Source: a virus (lineage: Duplodnaviria > Caudoviricetes). From it: a DNA stretch of 64,000 nucleotides. Each line of letters opens with the position of its first letter. The first letter of the stretch is position 1. Positions 773 to 10,689 of this stretch are shown here, in pieces. The stretch lies in IMG/VR virus record IMGVR_UViG_3300031555_004297. One strand, 5' to 3'. A program made the position numbers and the translations under genes. The notes under the pieces are model-generated. The model saw only the letters and a list, made by a program, of their open reading frames with translations. It was not told the DNA's origin and did not search any database.

Positions 773-3700
773 TTAGATAAGACTTATATACATAAGAATC
801 TCTTCGCAAATCAATTCAGGAAGAATTGTAATTTGCTTACCATTTAGCTCATCGTCTTCATAATCGATTACTTCAAATTCAGAGCTCAAGATTACAGCAA
901 TAATACTAAGAATATGCTTTTCAATCTTCTCATTCTGATATTTTCTCTTAATCTCTTCCCATAATGGAGAAGACTCGAGCTTGGTCAACTCTTTCTTATT
1001 TACATTCTTACGACTTGCAAGACGAATAACTTTCGAGCTGACAATATATGGCAACAAGATCATTCCTGATGCTTCAAGAATTCTCTTAGCTGCAATAATA
1101 AGAACCACATAATCATCAAGATTAATGGCATTGATTGTATTTGTCATTATTTCTTCATATAAGGTCGTTACTCTTATACCGCTTATTATAAAGCTGCTGT
1201 ATATCACTATACAGATGAGACTATATCTTCACCCATTACATTTGCATTGGGGTGGATGCCATTTCCACTCACTCGAGTGTACTCCCGTTCGGGATAGTCG
1301 TTGAACGTTTAAGATGGTAGTGGGAGAGGGGCTCGAACCCCCAGTTAGGACCTGGATTAGAACCAGACCTGTAAACCAGCTCTAATATCATGAGGATCTC
1401 TCATAAAGATATAAGGCTGCTAGTTGCGTTTTCCTAATTTCGCCATCCCACTATATATCTTACTTCGCTGCTGATTGTCTCATTGAGAGTTCCCAGCAAT
1501 TAGACATCTAGTTTGCCATATATTCCTATATGGGGAAACATATACTCTATCTCCAAAATATTTAAAGAACAAATTAAACACTAAGTCACGTTGGAACGAA
1601 TTGACAGTGCATTTTCCTCCAGAGCTTAGACGGTGCTTATAAAACTGAATTTCGTCTTGATCAAACGGTCCATACATCATCTTGATTTGATTCATGGCAT
1701 CGTCTGATGCAACCTGATTTTGGATAAGAAGCGATTCATCCTGCTTTTGAAGGAATGATTCAAATTTATCAAATTCACTCGTTGTGTTCACGTAGGTCGC
1801 TAATCTACGCAGTTCTCTTATGAACTTCTTTAGGTGCTATCTAAAGACCAGACTATATCATCATCTTCAGCATTATCTGATCAGATGTTTCCCATTTCGA
1901 GCTCGCTTAAGCCCTACTCCATTTCTGGATAGTCGTTGAACCTTTATTAGAATTATTTATGACGATTATACATTCTATATCTACCGGTTTTATAATCGTT
2001 TTGTGAGAAATTGTATTTTTGCGATATATGCCGCCATGCCACTCCCTTATATATCGTAGATATTAAGGCAGAAGCATCTGGTGAATCCACCCCGCATGCT
2101 AAAGCTATTTCTGCATATGACAATTTATGTTCATCTAAATGTCTACATATCATTTCAGCTTGAGCTTCAGTAATAATAGCTTTTGGAGAATCCTCTCCTT
2201 TAACATTGAGATCATTTGCAAATGCATGTACATTATTTTCAGAATATGTAGCCCATTCTAAATTCATAAAGAAAGGATTAGATTTGTCTCCATCTAAATG
2301 ATTTATTATAAGACTCTGATCTCCTGGAACAAAATACATGCCTACAATTCGATGCAAAAGAAATGTTTTAGGTTCTCCATAAACATTTAATGATACGGCA
2401 ATATAATTATCTGGGCGTGGTGTTAACTTTAAAAACCGATTTAATTTCTTATCAAAGATTCGTCCAAAATTAGATACTTCATATCTATTTGGATAGATTC
2501 CTTCAATTTTATCTTGTTCGATAGGAACAAAGACTTCGAAGAATTCTAAAGGATAATTTAGATCATTAGGGTTATCTAACATATTTATCACTCCTTTCTT
2601 TGTTTTATTAATAATTCTAATACTTGGCTGCTGATTGCCCATTATATATCAATCCTTAGAGTTTCCTCATAGATCATCTCATAACTTGTTTCCGACTTTC
2701 GTCCCCATATAGGCTTATGAGCTTTAGGGTGTCCCAGCAATTAAGGAAATTTTATTTTTCGCAATATTTCTATTACGCTGAACTAGTAAAGTTAATTCAG
2801 ATCTTCATCTCTGCGGCTAGAGCTTAGCGATACGAAACTATATTCGTATTCAATCATTATCTTCATATAAGGTCGTTACTCTTATACCGTTCTCTTACGA
2901 ACTGCTGTATGTTTCCATACAGATGAGACTATATCATGATCCGCCTATATTGATATAATTCATTATAGGCGGACCTCTCCCATTTCGAACTCACTTGAGC
3001 CCTACTCCATAAAGGATAGTCGTTGAATATTTATCAAAAGGTATAATTGCAAGATATGTTTGTATATCTTCGTTTATGCTTAATATTTGATAAGGTTCTT
3101 TTAAATTGCGCCATATCCTTAGACATATTATCCATACCTAATGCTTTAAGTATAAGATCAAAAGATATATCTATATCTGTTTCAAACATAGAGCATATTT
3201 TATTTATTTGATCATCATTAAAAACTCGATTATGTCTGCCTTGTGGGAATTTATAGTCTTTTGAAATATGAGACCATAATTTTCCTTTCTTAATGGCAGA
3301 TATAAGAGCTATAGGATTTGATGATATGAATTCTAATCCAGTTGCATATGAAATCTCAGAAGCTGATAATCTATCTTCTTCTAACAATCTACATATTTTT
3401 CTTACCATGTTTTCATCTAGTAAACTTTTGATAAGATTATTATCATATGCATGACGAATATTCTCAGATCTGGTTATCCATTCAAGATTTCTATAATAAT
3501 TGTTTCTCGGATTTCCATCTTTGTGATTAACCTCAAGTTCTGGAGAATACCCAGGACAGAAACATTTTGCAACAATTCTAGATACAAGAGCCAGAATACC
3601 AGTTCCATCTTTAAGTGTTAGATTAACATAAGCTCTATTTTTAAATTGACCCAAATAATTAAATGAATATACCTTACCATGTTTATCATAATCTATATTA

Positions 3701-5703
3701 GATATATAGCCATAATTGCTAACTATATATCTATTCTCAACTATACCGGGAACAATATTATCCGTTATCGGAACCCAAATTTCATCTATATATTGCATTA
3801 CTTTATATAGCATAATTGTTCCTCCTTATTGATACTTTACTGCTGATTAGCATGCTACTTTTAGTAGTTTAGCCTTCCAGCAATTAGAGAGATTTGCTAT
3901 ATACATTACTGTATATAGGGACATTACTCTATCCAATATTTGAAATCCCGTGTTGCGCAAAATACTTTTATAGTTGAGATGCACGAGATTTCCATCGTAA
4001 CGATACTTCGATTATACTTTATGTCGCCATAAAGACTAGACTATATCTTGATCTTATATTCTATTACCGTTTATAAGATCCTCCCCATTTCCATTTGACT
4101 AATATCAAATGTACTCTACTCAGTTACTCACTAGAATCTTTCTTTCTAGTTACCTTTTCGATAGTCGTTGAACGTTCCTCTTGCGAGGCTTCGCTGCTGA
4201 TTGTCTCATTGAGAGTTCCCAGCAATTAAAGGAGTTTATTATTCATAGTGTCACCACTATGCTGCCCTAAGCAGTTAAGGCATAATATTAATAAGCACAT
4301 TCTGCACTGATTGCAGAGTGTGGATTGTGGTATCAATACCACGAATGTCCTGCATATTCCAAATTGTCTGATTACGTTTAGCTGTTCTCAAGACATTAGA
4401 GATTGCAGTTTCATAAAGTTTGCTATAAATGTCTACATTATATTTCTCGTTATACTTAGAGATGAGCATATCATAAACGCTTAAGATAAACTCACTCGAG
4501 TTAGTAATCTTACGAGCATACATAAAGTGACACATTAGCGGAATCATACAGTTCATAACGACAGATGCTTTCATCATGATCTGTCCATGTCTCGAAATAT
4601 TCACATGAGTCGCATACTCATGCAGTCTATAAGTTGTATGATTAGTTGGTCTTATAGACGTCTCCACGGTTTGCATGGAGTCTAGACTATATCTTCACCT
4701 TCGGCTTACTGACCCGTTAAGGTGCTCCCCATTTCGGATCGAGCATTGATCCTACTCTACTAATCAGATATATCTGAACCAGGGGCGATATATCTGCTTT
4801 CGATAGTCGTTGAACCTTCGTCCTCTGCCCTTAGCCCTTTTCTTATGTAAACTACCGTGCGGGGGTTACGAATAAAAGGGATTGTTTTTGCATGTCACTG
4901 CGAAAATAAATAAATCGTTCAAAAATAGGTTTGGTACGGATGAGAGGTATGAACTCTCTAAACTTCTATAAAGATCCGCATATGAATATTTGACATGCGT
5001 ATATTAATCGTTCATGGGCTGACAGGGGTGCTTGGCTGCTGGTTATTCATTGTTAATATTGGTTAGGATTTCTCCATACAACATCTCATCACTTCTTTCT
5101 GAATTTCTTCTCTATCGGAGCCTGACACATAGGGCCTTCTCCTGTAGCAGATGAGCTTTAGGACTTCCCAGCAATTAAAGGAGTTTATCCTGCTATATTT
5201 CTATATCAGGGTGACTGTTCTCAATCACTATATTGCAAATTAGGATTCTTAATATTCTTATAGGTTAGATTAAGGGAATAATTGTCTCTATTCATAAATC
5301 CTATTTTAAGGGCAATAGAGCCATCCATAATATAACGATACAAGTCATAGAAGAATGCCTCGCGAGTATAAGCCGGCTCGTAATCGATAAGATACTTAAG
5401 ACGGCAATACATAAATACAAGTTCATGATCTTTATCATAGAACTTTTCGAAATAGTTCAAGTACTGAACTGTATGAGTTCTCATTTCGGGATTATTGTAA
5501 GATCTCTTGGTGCTCATCATAAAGCTATCCAAGCTCGCATTTTGTTCCATACCAAAAAAAGATGACACGTCGAGCATGATCGCCCCTCGGATGGTCTTAA
5601 AGACTTCATCTTCAGGACTTGGCACCCATGTATCAATAGGTTGGAACTCCAATGGTTCAAAGAACTCCATTGGTGACAATAATTCTTGTTGTTTAGAACT
5701 CAT
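773..5703 (-). CDS. sigma-like promoter-specificity subunit of non-virion RNA polymerase (AR9 gp226/phiKZ gp68-like); spliced from 6 exons: 5224-5703, 4278-4592, 3931-4008, 2795-2854, 1549-1779, 773-1144 (511 aa)
   Basis: Removing five group I introns gives one continuous frame; all junctions are phase 0 (YSD|RHG, IMP|KYR, ILD|IEY, DLN|SEF, FGD|TNT). Motifs KRSYNN, LQYSD..KASVVM..IP.MCHF, KLYE, I.PK, DEDLNSEFDKFE, NSFQ, EEILMYISLI match gp226 as recalled. ATG at 5703 with AAGGAGG RBS and an early-type promoter upstream. Confidence 0.85.
1145..1548 (-). ncRNA. group I intron 5 of sigma-like gene (404 nt, tRNA-like element in L6)
   Basis: P1 GGAGAT|…GTTTCC with U.G; core motifs; ends …ATAATG|ACA. 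Confidence 0.9.
1315..1452 (-). tRNA. tRNA-Leu-like (class II) cloverleaf with extended, non-canonical anticodon arm, nested in intron 5
   Basis: Acceptor AGTGGGA/TCCCACT + A + CCA; D-arm GCG-AAATTAGGAAAA-CGC; T-arm GGGGG-TTCGAGC-CCCTC; long variable arm; anticodon stem ACTAG/CTGGT encloses 40 nt rather than 7. Confidence 0.75.
1780..2794 (-). ncRNA. group I intron 4 of sigma-like gene (1015 nt, HNH ORF in L6)
   Basis: P1 CTGAAT|…GTTCAG with U.G; core motifs; ends …CACAACG|AGT. Confidence 0.9.
1953..2582 (-). CDS. intron-encoded HNH homing endonuclease (NUMOD4-like + HNH_3 + C-terminal HTH)
   Basis: YEVSNFGRI, LLHRIVGMYF…INHLDGDKSNP…NLEWATYSENNVHA; ATG 2582 with AAAGGAG RBS; inside intron 4. 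Confidence 0.9.
   Translation of the reverse strand: MLDNPNDLNYPLEFFEVFVPIEQDKIEGIYPNRYEVSNFGRIFDKKLNRFLKLTPRPDNYIAVSLNVYGEPKTFLLHRIVGMYFVPGDQSLIINHLDGDKSNPFFMNLEWATYSENNVHAFANDLNVKGEDSPKAIITEAQAEMICRHLDEHKLSYAEIALACGVDSPDASALISTIYKGVAWRHISQKYNFSQNDYKTGRYRMYNRHK
2855..3930 (-). ncRNA. group I intron 3 of sigma-like gene (1076 nt, HNH ORF in L6)
   Basis: P1 GGAT|…GTCC with U.G; core motifs; ends …ATAATG|ATT. Confidence 0.9.
3034..3813 (-). CDS. intron-encoded HNH homing endonuclease
   Basis: YIVSNYG, VSRIVAKCF…VNHKDGNPRNNYYRNLEWITRSENIRHA; two C-terminal repeats; inside intron 3. Confidence 0.9.
   Translation of the reverse strand: MLYKVMQYIDEIWVPITDNIVPGIVENRYIVSNYGYISNIDYDKHGKVYSFNYLGQFKNRAYVNLTLKDGTGILALVSRIVAKCFCPGYSPELEVNHKDGNPRNNYYRNLEWITRSENIRHAYDNNLIKSLLDENMVRKICRLLEEDRLSASEISYATGLEFISSNPIALISAIKKGKLWSHISKDYKFPQGRHNRVFNDDQINKICSMFETDIDISFDLILKALGMDNMSKDMAQFKRTLSNIKHKRRYTNISCNYTF
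4009..4277 (-). ncRNA. group I intron 2 of sigma-like gene (269 nt, no cargo)
   Basis: P1 TGCCT|TAA-CTGC-TTA-GGGCA; P/Q/R/S core motifs; ends …AATCG|AAG. Confidence 0.9.
4593..5223 (-). ncRNA. group I intron 1 of sigma-like gene (631 nt; structured RNA with mini tRNA-like element in L6)
   Basis: P1 GTGAT|TG-AGAA-CA-GTCAC with U.G pair at the 5' splice site; core motifs AATTGCTGGGAA, AACCAGCAG, GTTCAACGACTA, AAGATATAGTC; ends in G (…TTTCG|AGA). Confidence 0.9.
4932..4980 (-). ncRNA. mini tRNA-like element (acceptor stem + T-arm + CCA) nested in intron 1
   Basis: (T)GCGGAT-CTTTATAGAAGTTTA-GAGAG-TTCATAC-CTCTC-ATCCGT-A-CCA. Confidence 0.6.
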
Positions 5704-7805: not shown

Positions 7806-8855
7806 TTAAGTTGTTACTTTACTCTTATTAGATCTTGCAGCTTCTTTTGCTCCTCGATTCATATTTACATGAACAGGCTCTACCCATCTTGCAATAAGTT
7901 CGCGATTATCAGAATCTTTAGGTCCGTACCAGTAATGATGCCAATGTCCGGCTCTCATATGAGGAATCCTAGACGCTTTAGGCCTCATACGGATATATGT
8001 TTTATTTACATCCAGCTCGCGTTTTTCTCTAGCATTATCCTCTTCATTTTTAGATCTACTAATAGTCCTACCGATAGCTGCCTTAAGAGGCTCATCATCT
8101 ACAACATCTTCGGGTCTATCTATCCACTGGATATCAAGTTTTGGAATATAAGTTCCTTTATATTTAGGATCGTTATTCTCTTCAAGAATATATAAGAATA
8201 AACTTAATACCTTTAAGCAATAAGACTTATATCCTTCTTTAACCTCTCCAGAAATATGATAGATATTATCTTTAATAAGCTCTCCATCATTGAGTACAAG
8301 TTTGTACTCTCTTAAAACTGTCATAGAACGCCAGTGAAGCTCTCTATTATATTCTTTAATAAGATTAGGAATTGTAAATGAGCATATATTCAGAGCCAAT
8401 CCATCAACAGATGTTTCATCACGATAAATGATGATACAATTATTCATATGATTTTGCTTACTTGGTACATACATGCACATCCCATTGAATGGGAGTTTGG
8501 TAAAGAAATCAGAATCGATCTCTTTATTACCTACATAAGATAACATGATTTCATTTACAGAATCCTCATCAAATATATAGAGTTTTCGGTGCTCTTTCCA
8601 GTGATAGAATGCACAAAGACGGCTTGCCATCATAGATACGGTGAGTTTATCATTTAGCGACATTCCATTTTTCTTATAATATTTAACAAGTTCAGACCAA
8701 ACTGTATCGCTAGATGTCTTTGCATCTTTAAAAAAGTTTAGTCGCTCCTTTTCACCTGTTTTATCGAGCTGCTCATAGAAACCACTATATATTCTTTTAG
8801 TCCTATCTAAAGCAACATCCATTAAATCTGTAGGATCATAATATTCTTCAGACAT
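7806..8855 (-). CDS. AcrVA2-like family protein (putative anti-CRISPR/anti-defence)
   Basis: C-terminal PHMRAGHWHHYWYG…RWVEPVHV motif and LPF..MCMYV, as recalled for AcrVA2-family proteins. Confidence 0.5.
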   Translation of the reverse strand: MSEEYYDPTDLMDVALDRTKRIYSGFYEQLDKTGEKERLNFFKDAKTSSDTVWSELVKYYKKNGMSLNDKLTVSMMASRLCAFYHWKEHRKLYIFDEDSVNEIMLSYVGNKEIDSDFFTKLPFNGMCMYVPSKQNHMNNCIIIYRDETSVDGLALNICSFTIPNLIKEYNRELHWRSMTVLREYKLVLNDGELIKDNIYHISGEVKEGYKSYCLKVLSLFLYILEENNDPKYKGTYIPKLDIQWIDRPEDVVDDEPLKAAIGRTISRSKNEEDNAREKRELDVNKTYIRMRPKASRIPHMRAGHWHHYWYGPKDSDNRELIARWVEPVHVNMNRGAKEAARSNKSKVTT

Positions 8856-9166: not shown

Positions 9167-9524
9167 ATTCTAGAACTATTTCAAGAAATGGAACGACTCT
9201 TACAGCAACATCTCGGCCTTCATTATCAACACCATTTAAGAATAATCCATTATGGCGATCTAATGTATGCCCTTCTACTTGCTCGATGTTATTTACAGAT
9301 TTTGCATGGTTTTCAAAAGGAATTATTTGATTGACACCCTCAACCCAACGATCGAGAATGGCATCGCAACCCGCATACTTATAGATTTGAGTAAGAAGAT
9401 TATCAATTGCAATACAAGGAAATCTCAATTCCTGAGGCCAAGAATCATTATTCGTATTGAATTCAATATAATTAATATGCTCAGATTTGATAAAAAGCCT
9501 TATAAAATTCCTAAGTTTAATCAT
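9153..9524 (-). CDS. hypothetical protein, paralog of 10682-11053
   Basis: TNNDSWPQELR vs TDNETFPKELR; translationally coupled to rtcB. Confidence 0.65.
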   Translation of the reverse strand: MIKLRNFIRLFIKSEHINYIEFNTNNDSWPQELRFPCIAIDNLLTQIYKYAGCDAILDRWVEGVNQIIPFENHAKSVNNIEQVEGHTLDRHNGLFLNGVDNEGRDVAVRVVPFLEIVLEYVQE

Positions 9525-10689
9525 TATTTTCTCCTTCTGCTTTGAAATTGTAAATAGGTTTAATTATCTTCTCAATTTCTACAGTATCTTTAATACGATC
9601 GGTAATATAATCCAATGACTTATAAGCCATCGGAGATTCATCGATTGTGCTATGAGAAATAGAACTTGAGTAAATGCCTTCCATCTCTTTCTTATACCGA
9701 GTAAGAGTAAGACTATTTCTAGCTTGCTCTCTTGTAAGAAGACGTCCAGCCCCATGAGGAGCAGAATTGTTCCAGTCAGAATTTGATTTGCCCTTGCCGA
9801 TAATGCAACCTTCCTTCATATTAATTGGAATGATTACCTGGTCGTGTTCGCATGCACGAATACAACCTTTTCGTAGATGGTAGTAAACAATTGGATTACC
9901 ATCTTCGCCTACTCCATCGCTAGCAATTCGAATTGAATTATGAGTACAACCTATTTGATCATATGAGATCTTCCATTTCATTGCTTTGCAGATCTCGTTT
10001 ATAATAGCTCCACGATTCTCACTAGCAAAATTAGAGACTCTACCTACATCCTGGTAGAAGTCCATCGCCTGATTACCTGTAAGATATGCAAACTCGTAAG
10101 GAATTTCAGGATGCTGAGCTTTGGCTTCTTCTTTATAATAGTCGATAATTTCTGTACCAAGATGTCGGCTGCCACTATGAACGATAAGCCAGTATTCGGA
10201 TTTTCCATTCATATCTTCAGAAATTCCGAGCTCGATGAAATGATTTCCGCCACCAAGAGTTCCAATACTGCAAAGAGCTTTATCTATATTAAAGTTTCGA
10301 CAAGTCAAGACATCGAGAACAAATTCTCTAATCCATACTTCTCGTTCTTTGATATTTTTATCACGAATATTCATTCCATAAGGAATTTCAGATCTGATAA
10401 ATTTATCAAGCTTTTCAAGTGCAATCTTGGGTTTACCGGCAAGCTTAACAGCAGATACACCGCATCCTATATCTCCACCAAGAAGAATAGGAGAAATTTT
10501 ATTTCGACTCATCAGACTGGTGCCAATTACGCAACCAGGACCAGCATGAACGTCGGGCATAATTCTTATAATAGCATCCTTTCCAATATCGCTATCGAGA
10601 AGGGCTTTAATCATTCCGAGAGAGCTCGGATCAATTTGATCTGTAAATACTTTACAGTTTTCAGACAAGATAGTTTCATATTTAATCAT
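9517..10689 (-). CDS. rtcB: RtcB family RNA ligase (3'-phosphate/2',3'-cyclic phosphate to 5'-OH)
   Basis: MPDVHAG, GGDIGCG, GTLGGGNHFIE, HSGSR, HN, SAPHGAGR, DESPMAYK. Confidence 0.95.
   Translation of the reverse strand: MIKYETILSENCKVFTDQIDPSSLGMIKALLDSDIGKDAIIRIMPDVHAGPGCVIGTSLMSRNKISPILLGGDIGCGVSAVKLAGKPKIALEKLDKFIRSEIPYGMNIRDKNIKEREVWIREFVLDVLTCRNFNIDKALCSIGTLGGGNHFIELGISEDMNGKSEYWLIVHSGSRHLGTEIIDYYKEEAKAQHPEIPYEFAYLTGNQAMDFYQDVGRVSNFASENRGAIINEICKAMKWKISYDQIGCTHNSIRIASDGVGEDGNPIVYYHLRKGCIRACEHDQVIIPINMKEGCIIGKGKSNSDWNNSAPHGAGRLLTREQARNSLTLTRYKKEMEGIYSSSISHSTIDESPMAYKSLDYITDRIKDTVEIEKIIKPIYNFKAEGENND

Follow-up and report, generated by a model that had tools for sequence, protein, structure and literature searches.

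tRNA genes and a 48-nt tRNA-like element as cargo of group I introns in gut jumbo phages

Group I introns that interrupt RNA polymerase genes have been described in the phages AR9 and phiKZ/PhiPA3 (PMC12908238). A transfer RNA (tRNA) lies among many genes in the 19-kb P8 insertion of a group I intron, ND5-717, of mushroom-coral mitochondria (PMC6545197), and tRNAs of the Lak megaphages hold tRNA-shaped introns (Devoto et al., 2019; PMC6784885). The known cargo of phage group I introns is a homing endonuclease, or else they are empty; in the gut jumbo phages described here, tRNA genes occupy them across a whole clade. The window, a 64,000-nucleotide (nt) stretch of virus record IMGVR_UViG_3300031555_004297 (Duplodnaviria; Caudoviricetes), carries in loop L6 of one such intron a 48-nt mini-tRNA, the subject of this report. 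The whole record is a 185-kb genome that is about 75% complete, and the sequencing runs with matching DNA are animal faeces and bovine gut metagenomes.

The element and its intron

The host gene is split by five group I introns, of which four match Rfam RF00028 above the gathering score and the fifth weakly. Intron 1, which contains the element, matches at 50.5 bits (4662-5235, above the gathering score) and has the P, Q, R and S core as well as the splice-site features listed below. Its exons join in frame at QYSD/RHGQ (D/RH), as in intronless homologs that include L054. A profile of 13 such homologs matches PDB 7S01 chain A (7s01_A, 464 amino acids) with an E value of 1.3e-29. By this match and the 464-amino-acid length, the host gene is identified as an AR9 gp226-like (sigma-type) promoter-specificity subunit of a non-virion RNA polymerase; gp226 is the sigma-like subunit that gives the AR9 enzyme its promoter specificity (PMC9209446). 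The features of the split gene and of the element are as follows.

5224-5703, minus strand: exon 1 of the host gene, ending ...QYSD, its junction placed with intronless homologs
4593-5223, minus strand: group I intron 1, 631 nt, with U.G at the 5' splice site, a terminal G, a long P5 extension and no open reading frame (ORF)
5031-5041, minus strand: Q element (P4 3' strand / P6 5' strand), where the L6 insertion starts
4804-4819, minus strand: R element (P6 3' strand, J6/7 and P7), where the L6 insertion ends
4278-4592, minus strand: exon 2 of the host gene, beginning RHGQIMMK; phrog_25005 RNA polymerase
4932-4979, minus strand: 48-nt mini-tRNA in loop L6 of intron 1, an internally deleted tRNA-Leu(UAG)
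4979-4974/4941-4936, minus strand: acceptor of the mini-tRNA, 6 bp
4973-4959, minus strand: connector of 15 nt, aligning to the anticodon-loop remnant
4958-4954/4946-4942, minus strand: T stem, with a degenerate loop at 4953-4947
4935 and 4934-4932, minus strand: 3' end of the mini-tRNA, A73 followed by CCA

The segment 4817-5030 is an insertion between Q and R, that is, in P6/L6. Introns 3 and 4 of the same gene have HNH endonuclease genes in this loop, and the L6 of intron 2 is only 19 nt long. A first-pass annotation, made from the letters alone, had drawn an acceptor, T-arm and CCA in the segment, and all of its motifs are present where it placed them, on the minus strand. The stacked pattern is real: dinucleotide shuffling of the L6 region reproduced it twice in 5000 trials, and not once in 5000 when a TTC loop was required. 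The scanner required NCCA and a fully paired acceptor that stacks on a T stem of 5 bp closing a 7-nt loop, and allowed a connector of up to 25 nt; in its TTC version it matched, in the whole 185-kb genome, this element and one in intron 5 only. The 48-mer folded alone is predicted to adopt the drawn structure, most acceptor pairs having P 0.93-1.0 and the innermost 0.67.

The element does not have the parts of a functional tRNA. There is neither a D arm nor a 7-nt anticodon loop, only the 15-nt connector, and ARAGORN and Rfam do not detect it as a tRNA; low-stringency ARAGORN calls were rejected as noise. The top half is itself incomplete, with 6 + 5 bp and U58 instead of a 7-bp acceptor, a 5-bp T stem and the pair U54-A58, and position 54 is T, G or A in the three known alleles of this type. 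An Rfam check of 4817-5030 up to an E value of 10 gave no family for the element. An exact DNA search of IMG/VR with the T arm found no match, and the matches in cultured-phage records are to the intron core only.

Origin from tRNA-Leu and tRNA cargo across the clade

The first homologous introns retrieved had a complete tRNA-Leu with an encoded CCA at the same spot. Within the species of the window, an intact tRNA-Leu(UAG) occupies exactly this place in strains L071 and L192-L201 (by ARAGORN, and by Rfam where tested), matching the mini-tRNA in position and sequence; the flanks of two intact-allele strains that were compared directly are 92-98% identical to the window. The 48-nt allele is found in L151-L160, L202-L211 and L212-L215, wherever the contig extends far enough. 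Nine other lineages carry an intact tRNA-Leu (UAG or UAA) at the same place. In the sister species L325 the site holds a tRNA-Leu(UAA). Aligned to the full tRNA, the mini-tRNA is missing one base of the acceptor and two blocks, the first comprising the D arm and the second the 3' anticodon stem together with the variable arm. The alignment also matches the connector to the former anticodon loop, but it is weak there.

In the tree a single 100/100 clade contains both mini and full alleles, intermingled, and the nearer outgroups carry the full tRNA; the mini is therefore the derived allele. On these comparisons it almost certainly derives from a tRNA-Leu gene, and the strain sequences place both alleles together within one phage species. 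Recombination has probably exchanged the mini allele among strains. Since its D, anticodon and variable arms are deleted, the mini-tRNA cannot decode. No intact tRNA gene was found in the 75%-complete genome. CUA is the rarest leucine codon of the genome, which may explain why tRNA-Leu(UAG) is dispensable. Import of the window element from the L077/L081 lineage, whose connectors are alike, was considered and rejected; the acceptor, the T stem and both flanks match the tRNA-Leu of the same species.

Carriage of tRNA is not peculiar to this species. Introns at this site were sampled in 12 species-level lineages; in each of them L6 contains a tRNA or tRNA-like RNA, and in no case an endonuclease. 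These lineages are a small part of the clade, as about 70 protein clusters terminate at the position of the intron. By sequence, then, a tRNA gene is the cargo in the loop where sister introns of the same gene carry homing endonucleases.

Because a cargo is present in every intron at this site, and because nearly all of it is tRNA-Leu with A73, it might be thought that the tRNA-like top half is never cut and serves as a tertiary-contact module or as a docking site for a splicing cofactor such as leucyl-tRNA synthetase (LeuRS). The yeast mitochondrial LeuRS offers an analogy for such a protein cofactor. Several observations make this very improbable. LeuRS needs the D-arm and T-loop and the window mini has neither; sister introns of the same gene have bare loops of 17-32 nt; and other cargo is tRNA-Gln plus tRNA-Lys.

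A number of further introns were recorded. In L163 (7598-7971) a tRNA-Leu(UAA) lies in L6 of the group I intron of a sigma-like gene and is in turn interrupted within its anticodon by another group I intron core, of the tRNA type, a triple nesting. In L113, L6 of a group I intron of the same gene (2223-2604) holds tandem intact tRNAs for Gln(UUG) and Lys(UUU) at 2342-2491. At other intron sites of the gene, L6 contains an intact tRNA-Leu gene in L169 (7374-7461, UAA) and L086 (7099-7183, UAG). ORF-less L6 insertions of 276-384 nt that have no tRNA-like top half occur in L081 (1131-1514, minus strand), L082 (1556-1939, minus strand) and L113 (1734-2009). Scanning with patterns for tRNA ends immediately upstream of an R element and for an L081-type mini brought up no further recognisable intron-borne copies; a third scan found L067 again and nothing else, and a fourth gave one true new case, in L264, L283 and L289.

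Non-decoding forms and their possible retention

Non-decoding tRNA-like RNAs were found in six forms: the window type, that of L077, L081 and L092, those of L174 and L171, the intron-5 type and that of L199. They span 48-138 nt and differ greatly in sequence. Common to them are the acceptor and T-stem pairs (161 of 165 kept), NCCA (14 of 14 copies) and A(-2)U(-1) (13 of 14). Two of the forms are independent mini-tRNAs and a larger element in the window's own gene:

L077:7211-7261, L081:7176-7225 and L092:7146-7199: independent mini-tRNAs of 50-54 nt, in an intron at a different site (after RDED) in the same gene
1315-1452, minus strand: non-decoding tRNA-Leu-like RNA in L6 of intron 5, with a 7-bp acceptor, a canonical T-loop and ACCA

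The L077, L081 and L092 minis diverge by 48-68% at fourfold sites and yet retain ACCA, the T-loop motif and all 12 pairs (7 + 5 bp), in which two changes are fully compensatory; they are the best candidates for bench tests. The intron-5 element has enlarged anticodon and variable arms and is conserved in L071, L194, L196 and L202. It belongs to another lineage with another acceptor stem, in agreement with the independent acquisition that the first-pass annotation had proposed. A homolog lies in a related phage at L264:7420-7554 (also in L283 and L289), in a group I intron within the catalytic motif of RNA polymerase beta-prime (AADFD/GDT), and three compensatory acceptor changes separate the two. 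At the intron-5 site L199 has a different non-decoding tRNA-like RNA, with a G discriminator. In L174 (6219-6292) the tRNA body and the D and T arms are intact and a GAAA (GNRA) tetraloop replaces the anticodon loop; Rfam scores this element as a tRNA and ARAGORN misses it. In L171 the anticodon arm is enlarged. L171 and L174 are sisters and may share a single loss, and the window allele may be the most eroded member of the series.

The reading favoured here, held with about even confidence, is that the remnant has been kept as the RNase P/3'-end processing site of the ancestral tRNA. Bacterial RNase P recognises a 3' RCCA, U(-1) and a helix of about 12 bp that starts at G(+1), and it cleaves pre-SRP (signal recognition particle) RNA and phage C4 RNA, which have no T-loop (PMC10731613). 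The mini-tRNA has an 11-bp helix (12-13 bp in L202/L212), A(-2)U(-1), G+1 and an unpaired ACCA. The earlier suggestion of a minimal RNase P/CCA-end substrate is thus plausible in that the sequence determinants match, but the origin from tRNA-Leu(UAG) was invisible to a reader of this DNA alone.

Around the remnant, two helices are predicted in L6:

5016-5026, minus strand: P6a/b clamp helix, 5' strand
4822-4837, minus strand: P6a/b clamp helix, 3' strand
4991-4998, minus strand: inner 8-bp helix around the tRNA remnant, 5' strand, present in the minimum free energy (MFE) structure
4890-4897, minus strand: inner 8-bp helix, 3' strand

The P6 clamp closes the insertion, and the predictions give it a duplex of -13 to -21 kcal/mol in 13 of 13 orthologs, whose sequences differ. 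The inner helix had been noted in the first pass, and most strains of the species preserve it, though with wobble changes; it is absent in L196, and a perfect 8-bp inverted repeat, found in 26% of shuffles, is unremarkable in itself. A structured RNA of 210 nt, as the segment had been called, is not apparent, since its stability is no better than that of shuffles (z -1.0); the region is simply the P6 extension of the intron with the tRNA remnant at its tip. Three other proposed parts were rejected as functional. The two copies of TGAACGATT are at chance level (a 9-nt direct repeat occurs in 8.7% of shuffles), the AAAAGGG strand of the CCCTTTT...AAAAGGG hairpin overlaps the conserved P6 helix and is missing in 11 of 11 close relatives, and formation of the 3-bp CTT/AAG hairpin is not predicted. 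The absence of coding capacity was borne out, there being no ORF of 60 amino acids or more in 4817-5030.

If the remnant is a processing site, host RNase P would cut before G+1 (4979) and 3' nucleases would trim to the encoded CCA. Cleavage would most likely take place on the excised intron and sometimes on the pre-mRNA, in which case the P6 helices would hold both intron halves together. The cut would free a 48-nt CCA-ended hairpin and open the intron RNA. In genome G000, the regions upstream of genes are enriched about 9-fold in AACA-N6-TA and about 16-fold in TATATTAT, which fits AR9-like late and early promoters, respectively. Among 20 leaders the late motif is in none and an early-like word is in four, with no fixed spacing; as no conserved internal promoter was found, the intron transcript is probably the source from which the tRNAs are released. 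The T4 td intron reportedly trans-splices when broken in P6-L6a and tolerates deletions (Salvo, Coetzee and Belfort, 1990; PMID 2308166). By analogy with td broken in L6a, the P6 clamp could hold the cut intron together. One can extend this to a cut in L6 of the late-promoter sigma-subunit pre-mRNA after which the P6-clamped halves still splice, so as to tune the timing of late transcription or intron turnover, the 48-nt allele being the minimal signal left after loss of decoding; this extension is doubtful. That the RNA is cut, that the intron splices and that the cut benefits the phage at all are things we infer.

Several points weigh against retention of a processing site. Within the whole intron the acceptor pairs are predicted with P of only about 0.22, the tRNA-like fold lying 0.5 kcal/mol above the MFE. 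The window lineage has lost the canonical T-loop motif (U58) and its acceptor is one pair short (6 bp, not 7). Neither processed nor spliced RNA was seen: neither a splice joint nor an RNA end was present among the matches listed from two metatranscriptomes and two DNA runs, which were covered as assembled contigs, a form of data that does not reveal RNA ends, and with a small RNA share (0.06-0.11). The tandem tRNAs of L113 have no encoded CCA, and an intron of L113 (1065-1305) retains a T-arm-like hairpin only, which shows that decay can go to completion. The window type is known from three alleles only, with nearly identical flanks; the local genealogy may therefore be too shallow to reveal selection on ACCA. 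The A-U at T-stem 50:64 is present also in the intact tRNA of L325 and so need not be a compensation that followed truncation. In favour of retention, variation among the three alleles falls on 3 of 7 loop sites but on only 1 of the 41 remaining sites (Fisher p 0.008, post hoc), while exon 1 fourfold sites differ by 14-28% in the window lineage. The evidence for selection in this lineage itself is nevertheless weaker than that in the L077/L081/L092 group.

The main rival reading, possible though somewhat unlikely, is that the window element is a decaying pseudo-tRNA: a useless cargo, of which a closed hairpin persists to prevent the P6 extension from misfolding the ribozyme, and in which ACCA survives because the time since the loss is too short. 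The T-loop motif is lost, positions 54, 57 and 60 are free to vary, and the 54/60 changes in L202 and L212 merely lengthen the hairpin. The coexistence of full and mini alleles shows that the phage can do without the tRNA, and the lack of an intact tRNA in the genome and the shuffle-like stability of the region agree with decay. However, unpaired NCCA persists in every non-decoding copy of all six forms, even across the 48-68% fourfold divergence, and closing a hairpin requires neither the CCA nor, in five of the forms, the T-loop motif. The 19-nt loop of intron 2 indicates that full deletion was available.

A different benefit is also conceivable, namely that the freed CCA-ended mini-RNA is itself selected, much like the stable tRNA-shaped RNAs of phages, and acts as a decoy for, or inhibitor of, host enzymes by which tRNA acceptor ends are bound or attacked. 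Toxins that modify the CCA end, of the CapRel/FaRel or MenT types, are known. Conservation of stems and NCCA fits such a decoy too, the anticodon is lost recurrently in the six forms, and an RtcB RNA ligase gene 4 kb upstream suggests conflict over tRNA. There is, however, no candidate target or partner, the wide range of size and sequence among the forms is hard to reconcile with one, and a strong promoter of its own would serve a decoy better than an intron. A decoy is considered quite unlikely, and the processing-site reading is preferred.

The RtcB gene (PF01139) is at 9517-10689 of the window, minus strand, upstream of the intron-rich gene, and is kept in close relatives, some of which have an RF-1-domain gene near it. 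An AcrVA2-like protein (PF26125) is encoded in the same early region at 7806-8855, minus strand.

Comparison with known systems

By the sequence criteria applied, the element resembles a minimal RNase P substrate and is not a tRNA, a tmRNA (transfer-messenger RNA) domain or a mascRNA. The main value of the findings lies in the clade-wide arrangement of tRNAs in introns and their repeated reduction, more than in the single allele of the window. Neither the split gene nor the reduced tRNAs are picked up by annotation. The natural gradation from an intact tRNA down to 48 nt, with both alleles in one species, is a ready test of the requirements of bacterial RNase P, and also of processing versus decoy as the reason for which phages keep non-decoding tRNA-shaped RNAs. 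It further illustrates one route by which 48-nt tRNA-shaped inserts may emerge. No published report of tRNA cargo in phage mRNA introns was found in the literature covered, which leaves out most subscription papers.

The direct ancestor is the bacterial/phage tRNA-Leu(UAG) (RF00005), with which the acceptor, T-stem, A73 and encoded CCA align; the mini differs in having no D, anticodon or variable arm, a 6-bp acceptor and U58. The mascRNA/menRNA and the tmRNA domain, to which the first-pass annotation had likened it, are likewise small tRNA mimics in a longer transcript and possibly cut by RNase P. The resemblance goes no further. Pair 3:70 is G-C and not the G3.U70 of tmRNA, there is no tag ORF, and neither ARAGORN nor Rfam calls a tmRNA; for mascRNA (RF01684), which belongs to a eukaryotic lncRNA with an upstream triple helix and receives its CCA after transcription, there is no Rfam match, the context is a phage intron, the CCA is encoded and the element can be traced to tRNA-Leu.

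The Lak introns are likewise tRNA-like inserts within another phage RNA. Each of them interrupts a tRNA anticodon loop and has to be excised with precision, whereas the mini-tRNA is in a peripheral intron loop, flanked by the P6 helices of the intron and not by tRNA halves, and its removal is unnecessary for the mRNA. The coral ND5-717 intron is also a group I intron of a protein gene with a tRNA gene in a peripheral insertion; it differs in belonging to an animal mitochondrion and in using P8, while the phage introns have a single tRNA in L6 that has been repeatedly reduced. Along with the Lak and coral introns, the nearest published cases are the phage introns with cargo in L6 (T4 td/nrdB type; AR9 and phiKZ/PhiPA3), which share the RF00028 family and the tolerant loop, and in AR9 and phiKZ/PhiPA3 also the insertion into an RNA polymerase gene. 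Where those introns carry an endonuclease ORF, the introns described here carry a tRNA gene or its remnant.

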